Part shown: piece by piece, positions 10,756-30,812 of the stretch
Position numbering within the stretch: position 1 is the stretch's first letter
Layout: each line of letters opens with the position of its first letter
IMG/VR virus record: IMGVR_UViG_2571042862_000006
Span: 1 to 44,464 of that record
DNA length: 44,464 nt
Reading direction: 5' to 3' (one strand)
From: a virus
Lineage: Duplodnaviria; Heunggongvirae; Uroviricota; Caudoviricetes
The notes under the pieces: model-generated
What the model was told of the DNA's origin: nothing
What the model saw: only the letters and a program-made list of their open reading frames with translations
Database searches by the model: none
Made by a program: the position numbers and the translations under genes

Positions 10756-12173
10756 TACTCGATCCTTATCTGGCAGCCAGACAGAGTGACAGGTGACTTC
10801 GTGATAACGCGCAATTTGAAGCCGACATTTTTCCTGATTCGCCCGACACGCTTCCACAAAACGCGTTTGTCGTAAACGAACGGTTCATTCTGCTCAATCA
10901 TCTGCTCACGCCCGTAATTTATGCCGTCAGTGGTTGCAGATAGGAACAGGCGGTCGGCGTACTGCGCAACGCCAGTTGACGATTCAACCTCAAGGTCGAA
11001 GCATCTGGCGTTATCCGCTTTGAACAACGGAGTAAACAGCAGGTGTTCTTGCTGTAGCCCATACTGGCTGCTGATATCGAACTGCAATTTCCCGGTCACG
11101 GACTCCAGCTTATCGCCGCACGTTATCTGATTGCCTTCGTAAATGAAGTCAATGGCGCGGTACACATCGTCATACAGGCCTGTTTTCAGTACACACCATT
11201 GCGGACCATTGGCGCTTGAAGATGCGTCGTACACGAGGACGTGGCGCGGAAGGTGGATAATCAGCAACTCATGAGCATCAAACCGCAACGATTCCATCAC
11301 GCCATCAGCCAGTTCATCAGCAGTGTAGGAACGAAGGATTTTCTCAATGCTCGCGCTGGCGATTGGTGATACCTGACCGGAGCCGATGATGTATACAGAC
11401 GGCGCACCTGTTGCCGGATTGCTGATGAACGCATAAGAATCAGCGAATGGTGTTTTGCAGTAAGTCCCGGCAATACCTTTCTGCACCATCAGCGATGGCT
11501 GTGCGACATACAAAGCGGCACCAACTGTGGTTGCCCCCGTCAGGGAGAAATATTCAATCGTCGATGAGCCAAAGCAGACGATGAAGTCTCGCCATGTTCC
11601 GATGCCGATGATGCCGTCAGGCTGCGATTCTGCGCGATATTGTGCGCTGTAACGGTCAGGATGCGATTCGTCTTCAAGGTCAGTGATAAACCATGAATCA
11701 GTACCGTCTTTTGACCACGCATAACGCCCACGTAAACGCGTAATGTCGCGAACCGAACCTAACTCATACTGAGTGAATCCGCTGTCTGTAGGCCAGTTTG
11801 AGACTGTTTTAACCGTTCCATCATAGCGATACTCGACCAGTTGACCATTAACGCCTACCGCCTGAGATGTTCGACCATGCGCCATTGATACGCGACCACT
11901 TCCGGCAACATCACCGACCTCGCTTTCGCCCTTATACAACTTGCCACCGCAAACGCGATAAACAGCATTCTGCGCCATGTTGTACTCGACACCGCGCGAT
12001 ACACCATTCACATCAGAGCGTTTGGCAATGCCAGGGAATGAGCGAAGATATCCACTGCTGTTGAGGATTTCTTTGGGGGTTGCCAGCATATTCACTGGCA
12101 GATAGTCGATATAGTCGGCGTTTCGAAAGTCTTTGCCGACACCTTTCATAAGCGGAAGTTGCTGAATCGGCAT
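10755..12173 (-). CDS. Tail hub protein (P22 gp10-like)
   Basis: 472 aa, same length as P22 gp10, in the conserved gp4-gp10-gp26 order. Confidence 0.8.
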
Positions 12174-12650
12174 TATTCGCTCCCGTTATCGCAAGGTTCC
12201 TTTCGCTGGAAGTAATTCCAACCGTTCCACTTCGCCAACTGGTTACCACTACCAACAGGCATACGGTTTGGATAACCGGACTTACATTTAGCGGCTTTTG
12301 CTCTGTCCATTGCAGACAGTTTGACGAGTCTCTCTTTCCCGTATCTGGCAGTGGTTATAAGTTTTGCAGACGCTTCCAGCGCATAATCCGGAGCAATGCG
12401 GCAGGCAAGGTTGAAAATGACGGCATTGATAGCGTTATTTGATAAACCGTGCTCATCGCCCGGATCTGGAGCGACATCTGCATCAGCGAAAATGTAGCCA
12501 ACGTTGATACCAGGTGACACATCACCGCCAAGCCATTCAGCCATCATCATTTCAAGGTCGTTGACGCCGTCTTCCATAGACTGCGGTTCGACATCGGTTA
12601 ACGTGGCATTTGATGCCACACCGAGCTTACGTAATGCCGCAAGAACTAAA

Positions 12651-12673
<23 letters not shown>
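12173..12673 (-). CDS. Head completion / tail adaptor protein (P22 gp4-like)
   Basis: From [33 protein letters not shown] the sequence matches P22 gp4; start at 12673 has an AAGG upstream. The ORF-track N-terminal extension through the repeat (SQSQ...) is rejected. Confidence 0.8.
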
Positions 12674-12959
<286 letters not shown>

Positions 12960-12971
12960 GCTTGTCTCCAG

Positions 12972-12998
12972 ATAAAAAAGGGAGCCGAAGCTCCCTCT
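12972..12998 (-). terminator. Rho-independent terminator immediately downstream of the coat gene
   Basis: Minus-strand reading AGGGAGC-TTCG-GCTCCCT followed by TTTTTTAT, 10-30 nt after the coat stop codon. Confidence 0.55.
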
Positions 12999-13003
12999 GG
13001 TTA

Positions 13004-14299
13004 TCACGCAGTCTGGTTAGGCAGACCAACACCAATTGCCTCTGGTCGTACAGCACATGCTGAATACCACACAGCAATACGGCACTTACCAGACAGAGTG
13101 TTGATATCACCCTGCGTTGCGAAGATGCCGTTAACACCAATACCTGGAATGCTGAAGGAAGAAGTTTTCATGCCAGCAAACAGTTCATGGGTTACCGGAA
13201 TCGGCTGAGACAGCAGGCGGATTGAGTCATCAGCCCAGAACACGTTAGCGGTGGTTGTTGCCACGTTCAGAACGTTTACCGGAGTGGTATTAGCAAGAGA
13301 GGTGTTTACGTTAGCGTAAGCCTTCTCTTCTTTTGTCAGTGACGCGTCATCCAGCGCAATCGGCTTCGGCGTGATTTCGATGTGAGTACTATCGATCACT
13401 CGGGTGATTGAGAAAGTCGCATCATCAGTCAGCACGTTCTTCGCCATCTGAGACAGGAATTTCACACCAGTGAAGCTGATTTTGTCGCCGCGCTTAAATC
13501 CGGTGGTGGAGGATACGGTCACCGTTGCAACACGGTTGTCGACGTTCTCCTTGTTACCATCGGTATCAAGGGTGTATGCCTGCGGCTTAAACTTCTGCGC
13601 TCCAGACACAGTTACACCAGTAGCGGTTGACTTGGTAACTGCCGGAAGTTTCGGTGAGCGAAGAATTTCATCAAAGCCAGCAATCTGACGCTGAATAGTA
13701 CCGTTGCGATACGCTTCTTCAGGAACGCGACCGAAGATGTCACCATCTACCAGGTTGCGGCCTGCTTTGCGGTAATCGTCAGGATTCAGGAAGTAACTGA
13801 TGCCCATATCGCGGTTTAGCTCACGGGAGAACATCAGTCGCTCTGCATCAGACACAAAATCCCATCCAGACAGGCCAGTAGATGGACCAATTGCGCGGGT
13901 ATCGTGAACAACAAGCGAGCCCATTTCAGTTGCCTGTTTGGCAATTGCTGACTCAATGTTATTCGCCAGTTTTTTGGCGGATGCCTGGATGCGGCGACGG
14001 TAAGAACGCTCATCACGCAGGTCATCTGCACGAAGCTCGAAGAAATCGTTATCCGGATCGCCCATGTTGCATTTCACGGAGAGTTCCAGAATCCCGGTTG
14101 CGTTGTCAGTTAAATCCCAGCCAGTCTGGGTTGGCGCTTCCTGCTCAACAGGCATCCACACGGTGTTGCTTGAACGCTGCATTGATTCTGCCGGAGGGGT
14201 GTATTTTGTCACTTTGGACGCCATTGGCGTCAGGTTCTGGACGGTTTCGATGATTTCATCCAGAGCATATGTGACCAGTTGACCTTCATTTAATGCCAT
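13004..14299 (-). CDS. Major capsid (coat) protein, P22 gp5-like
   Basis: 431 aa; N-terminus [10 protein letters not shown]...EIIET and C-terminus ...[13 protein letters not shown] match the P22 coat protein. Confidence 0.9.
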
Positions 14300-26926: not shown

Positions 26927-28378
26927 TCAGAATCCTCCTTTCTTCTTGGACTGCGGTTCCTCGCGTTCACGTCGGCGCATTTCAGCAGACTGTTGGTCTG
27001 TGTCATAAATAGCGCCATTTGCCTGAATGCAATACACCGTGCCGGTATTGCCATGACGATTGAGACGAAGGATCAGTTCGGTTTCACCAGGTGGAACACT
27101 GTCATCAAAAGCGCCTTCACGATGGATCCCAACCCAATAATCGCAATCCTGTTCAATCTGCCCTGTATCTCGTGAGTCACTTGGTAATGGGCGTTTATTG
27201 GTTCGGCTTTCCAGTGCGCGGTTAAGCTGTGTCAGAAGCACAACAACGCAATCAAGCTCTTTGGCAAGGTTCTTCAGTCCTTTGGTGATCATGCCGTAAG
27301 CAAGGTCGTTGCGATCGGCCTTCTCAGCGGTCATTAGTGTCAGGTAATCGACCAGAATCATGCCAACACATCCTTTTTCTCGCTTGATTCGACGGCTTTC
27401 GCTGACGATTTGAGCCAGAGATAATCCCGGCGTGTCGTCGATGTAAAGCATGTCGATTTCACTCAAGCGATTAGCTGTTTCGATCGCCCTGTTGAAGTCA
27501 CCATCGTAATCACCCTGATAGCCGTCATCAGCGTCATTTGTCGCCGGAAGGTAAAAAATATTCGGGTTAACACCTGACTTCTGTCCTACCAGTTTTTCCA
27601 GTATCTGGTCACCGGGCATTTCAAGGCTGAACATCAGAGCGGGCTTTTTCTCATGCACTGCGCAGTTGATTGCCATCTGGCTGTATAGCGTCGTTTTCCC
27701 CATCTTAGGGCGAGCGCCAATGACAAACAGAGAGCCTTTCACCAGACCTTTCGGTGACAGCATCCTGTCCAGCGATGGGATCCCTGTGCTCATTCCTCGT
27801 TGTTCGCCTGACGGGTCAAATCGCTTCTCAAGGTCGCTAACCCAGTCTTCCATGACCTCACCAAATGAGCGAAGGCCGCGACGCGATCCGGTTTTTGCAT
27901 GGTCTGTCAGTTGCGTGAAAATCGCCTGAATAGCTTCGTACTTCTGCGTTGCAGTCATTCCGTTGCGGGAATAGAGCAATTCCGTCGCTTCAGTCATGCG
28001 GTTGATGGCGTAGCGTTCCATTGCGGTTTCACGAACCTGCATTGCATAGGCAACGATGTTTGCTGCGCTTGGCGTGTTCTTTGCGATCTCAGCGATATAA
28101 GCAAAACCGCCAACAGACACCGTTAACGATTTACGCTCCAGTTCATCGAAAAGCGTCAGGCCATCTACTGGCTTTTGCTCACGGTGCATTCTGGTTATTT
28201 CTTCGAAAATGATTTTGTGTGGTCGGCTGTAAAATGAATCAGGCTTCAGCATCGCCAGGACTTTCTGGACGCGCTCACTGCTGTCATCATCCAGAAGCAA
28301 TCCACCAATCACCGCCTGCTCTGCCTCGATGCTATGGGGCGGCGCATAAAAATTATCGGTCATCGTGTTCACCCTCAC
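26927..28378 (-). CDS. Replicative DNA helicase, DnaB-like (P22 gene 12 analogue)
   Basis: DnaB N-terminal block PPHSIEAEQAVIGGLLLD; Walker A GARPKMGKTT; 483 aa. Confidence 0.85.
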   Translation of the reverse strand: MRVNTMTDNFYAPPHSIEAEQAVIGGLLLDDDSSERVQKVLAMLKPDSFYSRPHKIIFEEITRMHREQKPVDGLTLFDELERKSLTVSVGGFAYIAEIAKNTPSAANIVAYAMQVRETAMERYAINRMTEATELLYSRNGMTATQKYEAIQAIFTQLTDHAKTGSRRGLRSFGEVMEDWVSDLEKRFDPSGEQRGMSTGIPSLDRMLSPKGLVKGSLFVIGARPKMGKTTLYSQMAINCAVHEKKPALMFSLEMPGDQILEKLVGQKSGVNPNIFYLPATNDADDGYQGDYDGDFNRAIETANRLSEIDMLYIDDTPGLSLAQIVSESRRIKREKGCVGMILVDYLTLMTAEKADRNDLAYGMITKGLKNLAKELDCVVVLLTQLNRALESRTNKRPLPSDSRDTGQIEQDCDYWVGIHREGAFDDSVPPGETELILRLNRHGNTGTVYCIQANGAIYDTDQQSAEMRRREREEPQSKKKGGF

Positions 28379-29252
28379 GAACTTTCAGGTAGGTATTATC
28401 GTTAAGCAGGAAATCAAATCCCTTTTTGTGCCAGACGGTTCCGCGTTGATGGTTTGGACGCTCTTCGAACATCCATCGGCAATTTTCGCCTACGTAGCTC
28501 AAATAATTTCTCCAGTCCTGCATCGTGAACCCATGCCCGTCAAGCTGGCGGGTTATCACTCCGGCTTTGCGCCAGAACGTTCGGATCTGGTTTTTACGCT
28601 TGTCATTCAGTGCGCGGATTTTTGGCGCTTCAGGAAGGATTTCGTTGTAAGCATCGACAACATCCTGACAGCTGACGGGAGGTTTTTTCTTGTCAGACTT
28701 TTTGTCTGCTGTGGCACTCTCTAATACGTCAGTATTAGAGATAATATTATTATATTCTTTATCTGTGGTAATTTGCTGGTAATCTGCTGGTACAGTATTG
28801 CTTACAGGCATTGGTATTGCTGGCTTTGAGGTGGTAATTTGCTGGTAATCTGCTGGTACAAAATTTGACTGATAATCGTCATATTTCTCTACCGAGAAAA
28901 CTGAGAATTTACCGTGTGAAACCCAGTCAATCATGCCGAGTTTTTTGAACTTTCTAAGCAGGTACTGAACGCGATCTGGTTTGAGTCCTGTTTCAAACGC
29001 CAGAGAGTTTCTACCGCCAAGTAGCTTCCCTCTGCCTACCAGAATTTCTCCTGCGTCAGTCATTACATACTCAGGCGTATGCTTTGCTTTGAGGATTAAG
29101 TGAACCCACAGATGCGCTGCTTCTGCGTCCTTGTAAAACGGCACATCCATAATTTTACGGTGCAGCAAGGCATACCCCTTACCGCTGCTTTGATGCGGTT
29201 GTTGTAGCCTTCTGGCCTCTCTGGCTTCGGCTAGATTAGATATGTTACTCAT
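28353..29252 (-). CDS. Replication initiator (lambda O / P22 gene 18 analogue) containing the ori iterons
   Basis: Position between cII and the helicase gene; internal iterons plus an AT-rich tract; duplicated peptide PADYQQITT encoded by the iterons. Confidence 0.7.
28765..28860. repeat. Replication-origin iterons: two 30-bp direct repeats, each holding two GCTGGTA(A/C) units, with an AT-rich tract at about 28736..28763
   Basis: GTGGTAATTTGCTGGTAATCTGCTGGTACA occurs at about 28765 and 28831; lambda-like ori architecture (iterons then AT-rich region inside the initiator gene). Confidence 0.6.
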
Positions 29253-29391
29253 GACCTTTCTCCTTCTGCATCAGCTTCACCTTTTCCAACTCAGCCCGGA
29301 ATCGACCAGGCTGCTTGAAGCTGGACAGGAAGCGATCACGTAGTATGTGTTTGTGAATTTTGTCCTGGTAAGGACTGAGTTGTTTTGTCAT
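29245..29391 (-). CDS. Small ORF (about 48 aa) between cII and the initiator gene
   Basis: Hand-translated minus-strand ORF ([15 protein letters not shown]...) preceded by GGAG; stop overlaps the initiator start. Not in the ORF track. Confidence 0.3.
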
Positions 29392-29423
29392 AATTACTCC
29401 TGTGGATTGATCCAGTAATTCCC

Positions 29424-29720
29424 TCAGAATTGCATATCAATTTGCTTAAAATCCTCGGTGGCGGCCGGGGATTTTTTCTTTGTGATTTCATCAAGCGCAT
29501 ACTTAAAAGCCCTGCTAATCGGACTGATGTCTGATGCCATTCCGAAAGCACACAAGACCGAAGCAATAAATCTCCAGTCCGTTCTGCTTATCTTCGATTC
29601 ATGACAGCCAATCATCTTTGCCAGACCGCGCTGGGTAAGCGTCGACAGGTTGATGAGTAAATCAGTTTCAGCGCGATCAATTTCTCGCTGTGTTGGCTTG
29701 CTGTAGCTTGCTTGTGCCAT
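29424..29720 (-). CDS. cII: CII-like transcriptional activator
   Basis: 98 aa, position after cro; HTH segment and C-terminal ...[18 protein letters not shown] resemble lambda CII. Confidence 0.7.
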
Positions 29721-29788
29721 TTGTTAATTTTCCTATATTGATATTGAGTTATAGCGGCACACCCAATGGATTTGCCGCTGATGTTTGC

Positions 29789-29828
29789 TCACCCGGTTAG
29801 AGGTGAAAGGCCATGACTGTTAAAGAGC
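29789..29828 (-). promoter_or_regulatory. nutR-like site: boxA (GCTCTTTAACA) plus boxB hairpin with loop CUAACC
   Basis: boxA is identical to the boxA upstream of N; the boxB-like hairpin shares the CTAACC loop with the nutL hairpin. Confidence 0.45.
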
Positions 29829-29837
29829 GGGTACTGC

Positions 29838-30056
29838 TTAGGCGGCTTTGTTACTGGATGGAGGGAAAACATCATCCAAAGAACATTGGCACCCTAACTT
29901 CCTGAGGCCTTCTACGATCATTCGGCAATCGTTAAGGCCAGGAGTACGGATATTCAGCTCATAGTTGGCGATGCGGGATTGCCCCCAACCAATTGCCGAA
30001 GCTAGTACAGCTTGCGAAACTCCGATTTTTTTTCGCTGCTGGGCAATTTTGTTCAT
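29838..30056 (-). CDS. cro: Cro-like HTH repressor
   Basis: Small HTH protein (QAVLASAIGWGQSRIANYE) divergent from cI; start at MNKIAQQRKK preceded by GGGAGA. Confidence 0.7.
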   Translation of the reverse strand: MNKIAQQRKKIGVSQAVLASAIGWGQSRIANYELNIRTPGLNDCRMIVEGLRKLGCQCSLDDVFPPSSNKAA

Positions 30057-30072
30057 TGCGGTCTCCCTAGCA

Positions 30073-30151
30073 TTAATCACACACCCATTACACACAATTT
30101 GTGATTAACAGTCAACCTCAATTCGTGTACAGAGTTCAATCACGTTGCGTG
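30073..30151. promoter_or_regulatory. OR operator / pR / pRM region
   Basis: Minus-strand pR: TTGACT, 17-bp spacer, TGTAAT. 11-bp dyads CACAATTTGTG (about 30093..30103) and CACGTTGCGTG (about 30141..30151); flanking 9-bp inverted repeat TTAATCACA / TGTGATTAA. Confidence 0.55.
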
Positions 30152-30164
30152 TTACATTTAAGGG

Positions 30165-30812
30165 ATGAAAACGATGCATGAAATTATCGGGGAAAGGATA
30201 AAGTCCCTTAGAGAAGCTAAAGGACTTAGCCAGGCTCAATTGGCCAAGCTTTGCGGCTGGGCTGCGCCTTCACGCCTGGGGAACTACGAGTTAGGAACAA
30301 GAAAGGTTAGCGCGGATGACGCGCTGGTTCTTGGGGCGGCACTCGGCGTATCTCCGGCAAAAATAATGTTTGGCGAGGATTCAGACGCCGTATTTCGCCA
30401 ATATGAATACCCGTTATTTTCTTCAGTGCAGGCCGGGCCATTTTCGGAGGTGGGAAGCTACACAGCCAGCGATGCAAAGGCATGGGTCCCAACGACCACA
30501 AAAGCCAGCGAAAAAGCTTTCTGGCTTGAGGTGAAGGGGCATTCAATGACGGCGCCTCAGGGGGTTCGTCCAAGTTTTCCGGAAGGCATGCTGATACTCG
30601 TTGATCCGGCTGAGCCGGTAGAGTCTGGGGATTTCTGCGTGGCTTCTGCAAATGGTGATTCAGAGGCAACGTTCAAGAAGTATGAGAAGGATGCAGGGGT
30701 TAGTTACCTGGTACCTTTAAACCCGGCATATAGAACCCTGGATTGCGACCATAGCTGCCGCATCATAGGCAAGGTAGTTAAGGCGCAGTGGCCTGAAGAG
30801 ACGTTTGGCTGA
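30165..30812 (+). CDS. cI: CI-type repressor (HTH plus S24 LexA-like autopeptidase domain)
   Basis: C-terminal domain resembles the P22 C2 repressor ([13 protein letters not shown]...EGMLILVDP...ATFKKY); N-terminal HTH; true start may be the second ATG at 30174. Confidence 0.85.

Follow-up and report, generated by a model that had tools for sequence, protein, structure and literature searches.

A putative lytic replication origin of 11-bp direct repeats within the initiator gene of an HK022/HK620-type phage module

Introduction

Bacteriophage lambda places the iterons of its replication origin (ori) inside the O gene. The stretch of DNA analyzed here, IMG/VR virus record IMGVR_UViG_2571042862_000006 (44,464 nt, referred to as the window), carries a comparable region in the middle of its own O-type initiator gene, in which short direct repeats are followed by an AT-rich tract and a palindrome. 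Judged from sequence comparison, this region very probably serves an HK022/HK620-type module as its lytic (theta) replication origin; it lies within the stretch of the gene that encodes the predicted disordered linker of the initiator. An origin embedded in the initiator gene had been proposed in the initial annotation of the window, and the proposal is supported by the gene context, the replication origin feature (rep_origin) of phage HK620, the corresponding features of phages Sf6 and L, the published description of phage L (PMC8022706), and a comparison of 47 relatives.

As a prediction, this origin is already known from databases and the literature on HK620, Sf6, and L. The GenBank record of HK620 (AF335538.1) contains a two-piece rep_origin that maps exactly to 28765-28860 of the window, that is, to the two blocks of repeats described below. 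The homologous place in the Sf6 record (AF547987.1) is labeled [quoted passage not shown] and that in the phage L record (MW013503.1) "putative origin of replication." In the homologous gene of phage L, six 11-bp repeats have been described as the likely origin (PMC8022706). Gene 18 of P22 has the same genome position and a DnaB-like helicase partner (gp12), and the origin is thought to lie inside this initiator gene as well; according to the description in the same paper, it contains four ~20-bp repeats and its protein is ~25% identical to L gp18 (PMC8022706). As far as the account in that paper goes, the genetics of Hilliker (1981) allowed exchange between P22 and L of the whole replication region, not of single genes; this indirect evidence is the sole genetics found for this origin type.

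The initiator gene of the window has 99% DNA identity to the O gene of HK620, HK022, mEp235, VT2-Sakai, and a Shiga toxin 1 (Stx1)-converting phage. It differs from HK620 O at nine positions in 900 nt, none of them between 28709 and 29093, and the ori segment is identical base for base. Sf6 and L share with the window the layout of two times three 11-bp units, the AT-rich tract, the palindrome, and a near-identical C-terminal half; in contrast, their unit is TGTCCAACG instead of TTACCAGCA, and their N-terminal domain has diverged to ~50% identity. With this family identity (99% DNA identity; phrog_345) and with six mid-gene 11-bp direct repeats arranged 2 x 3 before an AT tract, the locus falls into the HK022/HK620/Sf6/L type.

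Repeat units and their conservation

A repeat search of the window returned a direct-repeat pair at 28765-28799 and 28831-28865 (35 nt each, 94% identity). Tandem Repeats Finder, independently of that search, recovered 28761-28792 and 28832-28858 as arrays of 11-bp period. The blocks, offset by 66 bp, match at 29/29 positions; among 2000 codon shuffles of the initiator gene, the mean of the best 29-mer self-match was 17.8 (sd 0.87) and the maximum 21. The initial annotation had described two repeats with two units each, which read GCTGGTAA or GCTGGTAC on the plus strand (28775-28782, 28786-28793, 28841-28848, and 28852-28859). The repeats lie where they were claimed, but a third unit, which reads GTGGTAA on the plus strand, is present in each block, giving an arrangement of 2 x 3 units at 11-bp spacing. 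The core of the 11-bp unit, read on the gene strand, is TTACCAGCA, with CCA at gene nt 397, 408, and 419 in block 1 and at 463, 474, and 485 in block 2. A fifth, partial unit had been noted between the repeats; it is present in exact 11-bp register (GCTGGCTT on the plus strand, 28819-28826), and AAGCCAG occupies this position also in the same-class relative L019. The repeat search found no inverted repeat within 28763-28861. Within the 44-kb window the units cluster at the initiator locus alone and no other iteron-like cluster was found; a comparable short-range repeat occurs at one other place, 12721-12814, where hexamers form a coding array.

The blocks encode a 10-residue peptide twice (aa 132-141 and 154-163 of the initiator), as the initial annotation had recognized. 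In block 1 the three units are read in three frames. Because an 11-bp period places three units in three frames, repetition of the peptide cannot account for the units. The plus-strand units GCTGGTAA and GCTGGTAC have their first six bases in common with the Chi octamer, GCTGGTGG, as quoted in PMC12315714 (6/8); this resemblance is probably a coincidence and was set aside.

Relatives were collected by tblastn against phages and by a scan of one genome per species, down to ~25% identity. Forty-seven of them, extending to ~40% protein identity and to many genera of Enterobacterales, were analyzable with the 66-bp block lag; the ST-29 locus (L006), which gave no clean translation in either of the frames tried, was left out of the protein analyses. 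The layout is kept in 47/47 relatives: 2 x 3 units with an 11-bp period, the 66-bp lag, the AT tract, and the palindrome, at an equal position in the gene. CCA is invariant in the units of all 47, and the unit as a whole is characteristic of lineages. The window shares TTACCAGCA with relatives in Enterobacter and Pantoea; L, Sf6, and Cronobacter relatives have TGTCCAACG, the CobraSix group has TGTCCAGCC, and relatives in Klebsiella, Raoultella, Erwinia, and Yersinia have GTGCCAACA, while AATCCAA and other variants occur in further lineages.

The constraint on the blocks is best seen between relatives with the same class of unit. In 235 same-class pairs whose N-domain DNA is at most 90% identical, DNA identity is 89% in the blocks, 69% in the N-domain coding DNA, 76% in the 33 nt upstream, and 58% in the spacer, the last figure covering the full 33-nt inter-block stretch 28796-28828 with the partial unit included. 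The blocks exceed the spacer in 235/235 pairs. Blocks 1 and 2 of one genome are 93.5% identical, compared with 60% for orthologous blocks between classes, implying concerted evolution. Along with the unit, the encoded peptide differs as well (PADYQQ, PTDVQR, PADVQP, and PTECQQ). These sequence comparisons argue for selection acting on the unit DNA itself.

The number of blocks varies naturally. Initiator alleles of 299, 321, and 343 aa carry two, three, and four blocks, respectively, and differ by whole modules of 22 aa or 66 nt (P0001-P0027, P0127, and others); the Sf6-type subfamily has forms of 296 and 318 aa. The alleles with three and four blocks show that expansion proceeds by whole 66-bp modules, and the repeat number of the origin is evidently polymorphic among E. 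coli prophages.

Among more distant relatives, in-gene repeat arrays were seen in metagenome-assembled genomes (MAGs) of Glaciecola (L056), Elusimicrobiales (L058), and Bacteroidia (L059), and in Prevotella (L060). Their arrays comprise a 12-bp unit, CCGACACCCTAM, at a block lag of 69, units of the GAACAAC type, and a tandem of the 12-bp AAACAAATGAGC. It seems general for this superfamily that the origin is embedded in the initiator gene. Two further loci look like contamination or mislabeled assemblies: a 386-bp contig of Xanthomonas pisi (L049), which encodes residues 1-84 of the initiator at 100% identity, and a 799-kb contig of Chryseobacterium sp. 18061 (L016), which has an Sf6-type initiator with enterobacterial-type units.

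AT-rich tract and palindrome

The AT-rich tract adjacent to the repeats, another element of the initial annotation, is borne out. It coincides with the minimum of the GC profile (GC 0.28-0.30) and lies within the least stable 30-bp and 40-bp duplexes of the window by nearest-neighbor energy (rank 1 of ~44,400). In the 47 relatives, the mean AT content of the tract is 84%, vs. 52% for the gene. The tract is also the place where homology to other phages changes. From the 3' end of the gene to ~28749, inside the tract, the window is 93-100% identical to Sf6 in every 30-nt bin and 80-100% identical to L; upstream of ~28749 it has diverged from both. This edge places the recombination joint exactly between a module of the N-domain with its units and a module of the palindrome with the C-domain. 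By this comparison, it is in the AT tract that the N-terminal-plus-iteron and the C-terminal modules of the mosaic meet.

The palindrome next to the tract was overlooked in the initial annotation and lies partly outside the interval that it covered (28736-28860). As a hairpin of single-stranded DNA it has a predicted energy of -7.5 kcal/mol (z = -5.5). A perfect palindrome with 9-11-bp arms stands at the equivalent place in 47/47 relatives, in 21 arm/loop variants whose centers are TAAC, TGAC, or (T)AA(A), and one with the center CTAAAG is found in the Glaciecola relative at 25% protein identity. Its range therefore extends from E. coli phages to a Glaciecola prophage. In an alignment of the 22 distinct sequences, 96.8% of cells are Watson-Crick paired, vs. 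59.3 +/- 2.7% after shuffling (0/500), and displacing the partner by 1-3 columns lowers pairing to 28-45%. All pairs (10/10) have been altered on both sides, and no one-sided change of the G-U type was found in the inner nine pairs. The stem is weak, with three G-C pairs. The center is strand-asymmetric, CT[A/G]A[C/A]G; structure is kept and sequence is free.

Divergence of the palindrome correlates with that of the C-domain (rho 0.30, 0/2000) and hardly with that of the N-domain (rho 0.08). Because nearly identical palindromes are found beside unrelated C-domains, the correlation is read as linkage, not specificity. Since wobble intermediates are absent and no relevant Rfam family was matched in 28000-30200 at a permissive threshold, the data point to a constraint acting on DNA (duplex dyad, hairpin, or cruciform), not on RNA. 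On the plus (antisense) strand, the palindrome with its T-rich tail was flagged as terminator-like, which is unlikely to matter. The coordinates of these elements and of the two genes concerned are collected in Table 1.

Table 1. Features of the putative origin and the adjoining replication genes (window coordinates)
Feature	Position	Strand	Description
Initiator ("O"-type) gene	28353..29252	minus	299 aa; phrog_345, HK620 O identity
DnaB-type replicative helicase gene	26927..28378	minus	Pfam DnaB 1.5e-31, DnaB_C 3e-60; directly downstream
Iteron block 1	28829..28861	minus	Three 11-bp direct units, TTGTACCAGCA GATTACCAGCA AATTACCACCT
Partial fourth unit of block 1	28818..28828	minus	CAAAGCCAGCA; CCA at gene nt 430, exact 11-bp phase
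Inter-block spacer	28796..28817	minus	Poorly conserved
Iteron block 2	28763..28795	minus	Units CTGTACCAGCA GATTACCAGCA AATTACCACAG; 66 bp downstream of block 1 in gene direction
AT-rich tract	28742..28762	unstranded	ATAAAGAATATAATAATATTA, 20/21 A/T; candidate unwinding element
Perfect palindrome	28718..28741	unstranded	Gene strand TCTCTAATAC-TGAC-GTATTAGAGA, 10+4+10; directly beyond the AT tract

Initiator protein

The initiator gene stands in the order cI / cro / cII / orf48 / initiator / DnaB-like helicase / ninB, and the helicase gene is labeled P or DnaB-like helicase in related phages. The initiator matches phrog_345, "replication initiation O-like," in PHROGs (E 1.9e-87). The N-terminal half of lambda O cross-matches the same family (E 5e-17), which makes the N-domains of the two proteins remote relatives. 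A 119-aa open reading frame (ORF; 28365-28724, plus strand) runs antisense to the initiator and is listed as a "hypothetical protein" (ORF b66) in the record of a Stx1-converting phage; it is probably a spurious call.

An AlphaFold2 (AF2) model of the initiator was built on a shallow alignment of 14 sequences; the listed homologs were mostly near-identical E. coli proteins. It predicts an N-domain at about aa 27-128 (predicted local distance difference test, pLDDT, 75-94) whose topology is helix / beta-hairpin / helix-helix / wing, a region of very low confidence at aa 130-191 (pLDDT 25-33), and a confident C-domain at aa 192-296. The model gives moderate evidence for a disordered linker at aa 130-191, and no more than that because the alignment is shallow. 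The top PDB matches in Foldseek, at E ~1e-2, are all winged-helix DNA binders (SmtB, CadC, CodY-C, CRP, MarR, and TubR). They back the winged-helix fold class and single out no specific relative, and a sequence search of the PDB with the initiator gave no meaningful match. The entire cis element (gene nt 392-535, aa 131-179) falls inside the predicted linker, where the DNA could be constrained without harm to the protein.

Co-variation of units and DNA-binding domain

The divergence of the units follows that of the N-domain (Spearman 0.57; Mantel 0/2000) and not that of the C-domain (Spearman 0.06; Mantel 335/2000). Divergences of the N- and C-domains are themselves uncorrelated (-0.05), implying mosaicism. 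The predicted recognition helix (aa 92-104) is class-specific: a 10-residue sequence of the window class goes with TACCAGCA, DRVKSLLRKF with the unit TGTCCAGCC, DNKV(K/R)SLLR(S/T)F with TGTCCAACG, and (D/N)R(V/I)KYLLxKF with GTGCCAACA. In five relatives (L010, L050, L051, L053, and L057) the C-terminal domain is unrelated to that of the window (14-15% identity) and the iteron architecture is retained, with the N-domain, units, AT tract, and palindrome all kept; in L010, the annotation of the following gene is that of a lambda-P-like loader. A functional coupling of the units and the N-domain agrees with both the helix-specific pattern and the place where the joint falls. No mention of the conserved palindrome, of the class-specific recognition helix, or of alleles with two, three, and four blocks was found in the accessible sources.

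Comparison with lambda and iteron plasmids

At the lambda origin, O occupies the iterons and the DNA is bent; on a supercoiled template an adjacent 40-bp A+T region melts, after which the helicase is brought in (PMC5043065). The window is similar to lambda in that the origin lies mid-way in a 299-aa initiator gene, that the initiator has two domains and a linker, and that repeats, AT tract, and a palindrome with a 4-nt center follow in that order. The corresponding gene positions are nt 349-435, 436-474 (an A-rich tract), and 477-504 in lambda, and 392-490, 491-511, and 512-535 in the window. In position, the palindrome of the window is analogous to the right-hand palindrome of lambda, GTCAGAGAATTC-TGGC-GAATCCTCTGAC.

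However, lambda has four units of ~19 bp, inverted repeats that are bound by an O dimer, whereas the window has six 11-bp direct units without dyad symmetry. The partner also differs, lambda using P with host DnaB and the window encoding a phage DnaB-type helicase, although some relatives with a window-type N-domain and units pair with a lambda-P-like gene. The analogy to lambda drawn in the initial annotation thus holds for the layout (iterons, AT tract, palindrome, and mid-gene position inside the initiator gene), but it does not extend to the type of unit, to a P-type loader, or to close homology of the initiators.

Plasmid iterons have been reviewed (PMC5043065). Iteron plasmids (RepA, pi, and TrfA) have in common with the window direct repeats, a winged-helix initiator, an adjacent AT-rich element, and a variable number of repeats. 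On the other hand, their iterons are usually 17-22 bp long, intergenic, and accompanied by DnaA boxes, in contrast to the 11-bp in-gene units of the window. The locus does not fall into the iteron-plasmid type; of an intergenic array of 17-22-bp iterons, DnaA boxes, and an AT-rich element, it has the AT-rich element alone.

Proposed mechanism

In the mechanism that we propose, the N-terminal winged helix would bind the 11-bp direct units, six of them full and one partial. The arrangement would probably be head-to-tail, with monomers or protomers on one helix face, in two groups of three 66 bp apart; direct units without dyad symmetry suggest head-to-tail protomer binding of the kind found at monomer-binding plasmid iterons. 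The nucleoprotein complex would strain the DNA and open the adjacent 21-bp AT tract, and the C-terminal domain would bring in the phage DnaB-type helicase encoded by the next gene. The palindrome may serve as a further structural DNA element, the leading guess being a hairpin or cruciform formed after opening. We infer the binding and its stoichiometry, the unwinding, the recruitment of the helicase, and the origin activity; that the 11-bp register favors underwinding and that three protomers per block are important is speculation. It is conceivable, if somewhat less than an even chance, that these loci represent a class of origin distinct from that of lambda, in which winged-helix protomers, bound head-to-tail in triplets on 66-bp modules whose copy number differs between strains, underwind the array through the 11-bp register (vs. 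10.5 bp per turn of relaxed DNA) and thereby open the AT tract, and the palindrome is a required cis hairpin or cruciform, for example in helicase loading or priming.

Several points weigh against the reading of the region as an origin. No DnaA box, with up to one mismatch allowed, was found within 3 kb; such a box is not required, but one potential piece of support is thereby lost. The initiator gave no match to the curated lambda-O models (Pfam Phage_rep_O and NCBIfam TIGR01610), the latter of which is matched by lambda O itself at 5.4e-39, and no similarity to lambda O by BLASTP; the analogy with lambda is without backing from close homology, and the PHROG cross-match is the sole link between the two proteins. 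The E-values of the winged-helix structural matches are weak. Because the units and the N-domain are adjacent, linkage could explain part of their co-variation. A literature search found no published footprint, ori plasmid, or marker-frequency mapping for this origin type, and the origin features in the databases are all "putative."

Alternative explanations

The same features might be explained by true binding sites of the initiator that serve regulation, by titration or handcuffing, as a roadblock at pR, or by controlling expression of the helicase, with replication starting elsewhere in the module. In iteron plasmids the initiator-binding repeats double as negative control elements, and DNA-level selection together with coupling to the DNA-binding domain indicates binding, not initiation. 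Nevertheless, the weakest duplex and the conserved palindrome invariably come after the units, in the three-part order of the experimentally defined lambda ori, and the window offers no other iteron-like cluster, the hexamer coding array at 12721-12814 being its only comparable repeat. We regard a purely regulatory role as improbable. A function of the repeats and palindrome as RNA (mRNA or antisense structure, or an antisense terminator), or as a target of another protein in recombination or packaging, appears more improbable still. The terminator-like appearance of the palindrome with its plus-strand T-rich tail and the mosaic recombination joint in the AT tract speak for such readings. In contrast, the Rfam search of the region was negative, a scan of 28200-29800 for sigma-70 promoters was empty, the stem has few G-C pairs, and double changes that pass through no G-U intermediates in the inner nine pairs fit a constraint on both strands of duplex or hairpin DNA better than one on an RNA stem; the unit sequence, moreover, tracks the DNA-binding domain of the initiator itself.

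The smallest chance is left to a mere in-frame duplication of a flexible 22-aa linker module, selected or tolerated at the protein level and without a role of the DNA. The region does encode a predicted disordered linker, and alleles that differ by whole 22-aa modules are what replication slippage in a tolerant linker would give. However, the 11-bp sub-period is no multiple of 3, and the DNA of the blocks is more conserved than the DNA that encodes a folded domain, while the spacer of the same linker is the least conserved part. The peptide also varies by class (PADYQQ, PTDVQR, PTECQQ) in step with the unit sequence, and the blocks are much more alike within genomes than between classes. An origin embedded in the linker-coding part of the initiator gene therefore remains the preferred explanation.

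Significance

This type of initiator and origin is very common, since single protein clusters are found on hundreds to ~1000 E. coli contigs, and its carriers include Stx1- and Stx2-converting phages such as VT2-Sakai. The site at which replication starts bears on the dosage of Shiga toxin genes after induction, on the construction of phage-derived replicons, and on defense systems that sense phage origins; the Lamassu protein LmuB, for instance, shows enrichment at lambda iterons in the course of infection (PMC12663957). The family presents a clean natural case of an origin overprinted on a gene, with a disordered linker and units in three frames, and the boundary at which its modules recombine separates the DNA-binding domain, together with its sites, precisely from the remainder of the protein. 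If the palindrome is indeed a required DNA hairpin or cruciform, it would be an unusually clear example of a DNA secondary-structure constraint inside a coding sequence. To a specialist in lambdoid phages, the findings will not be surprising.

Other features of the window

On the plus strand, a strong terminator-like hairpin (29448-29475) of 12 pairs, with TTCTTTGT after it, faces the 3' end of cII (29424-29720, minus strand) in antisense orientation. It has no match in Rfam; where it lies and how it is oriented would suit an oop-like antisense RNA terminator of the lambda kind. The hexamer array at 12721-12814 is a perfect tandem of TCTGGC, (TCTGGC) x 15.7. On the minus strand it codes for (SQ)16 at the N-terminal end of ORF 12173..12823 or, in the overlapping ORF 12651..13007, for (EP)n; length polymorphism is likely at this site, in a gene of the virion region. 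Over its left 25 kb, the window is a phage of E. coli of the P22-like (Lederbergvirus-like) kind, with IME10 matching best (96% identity over 70%).

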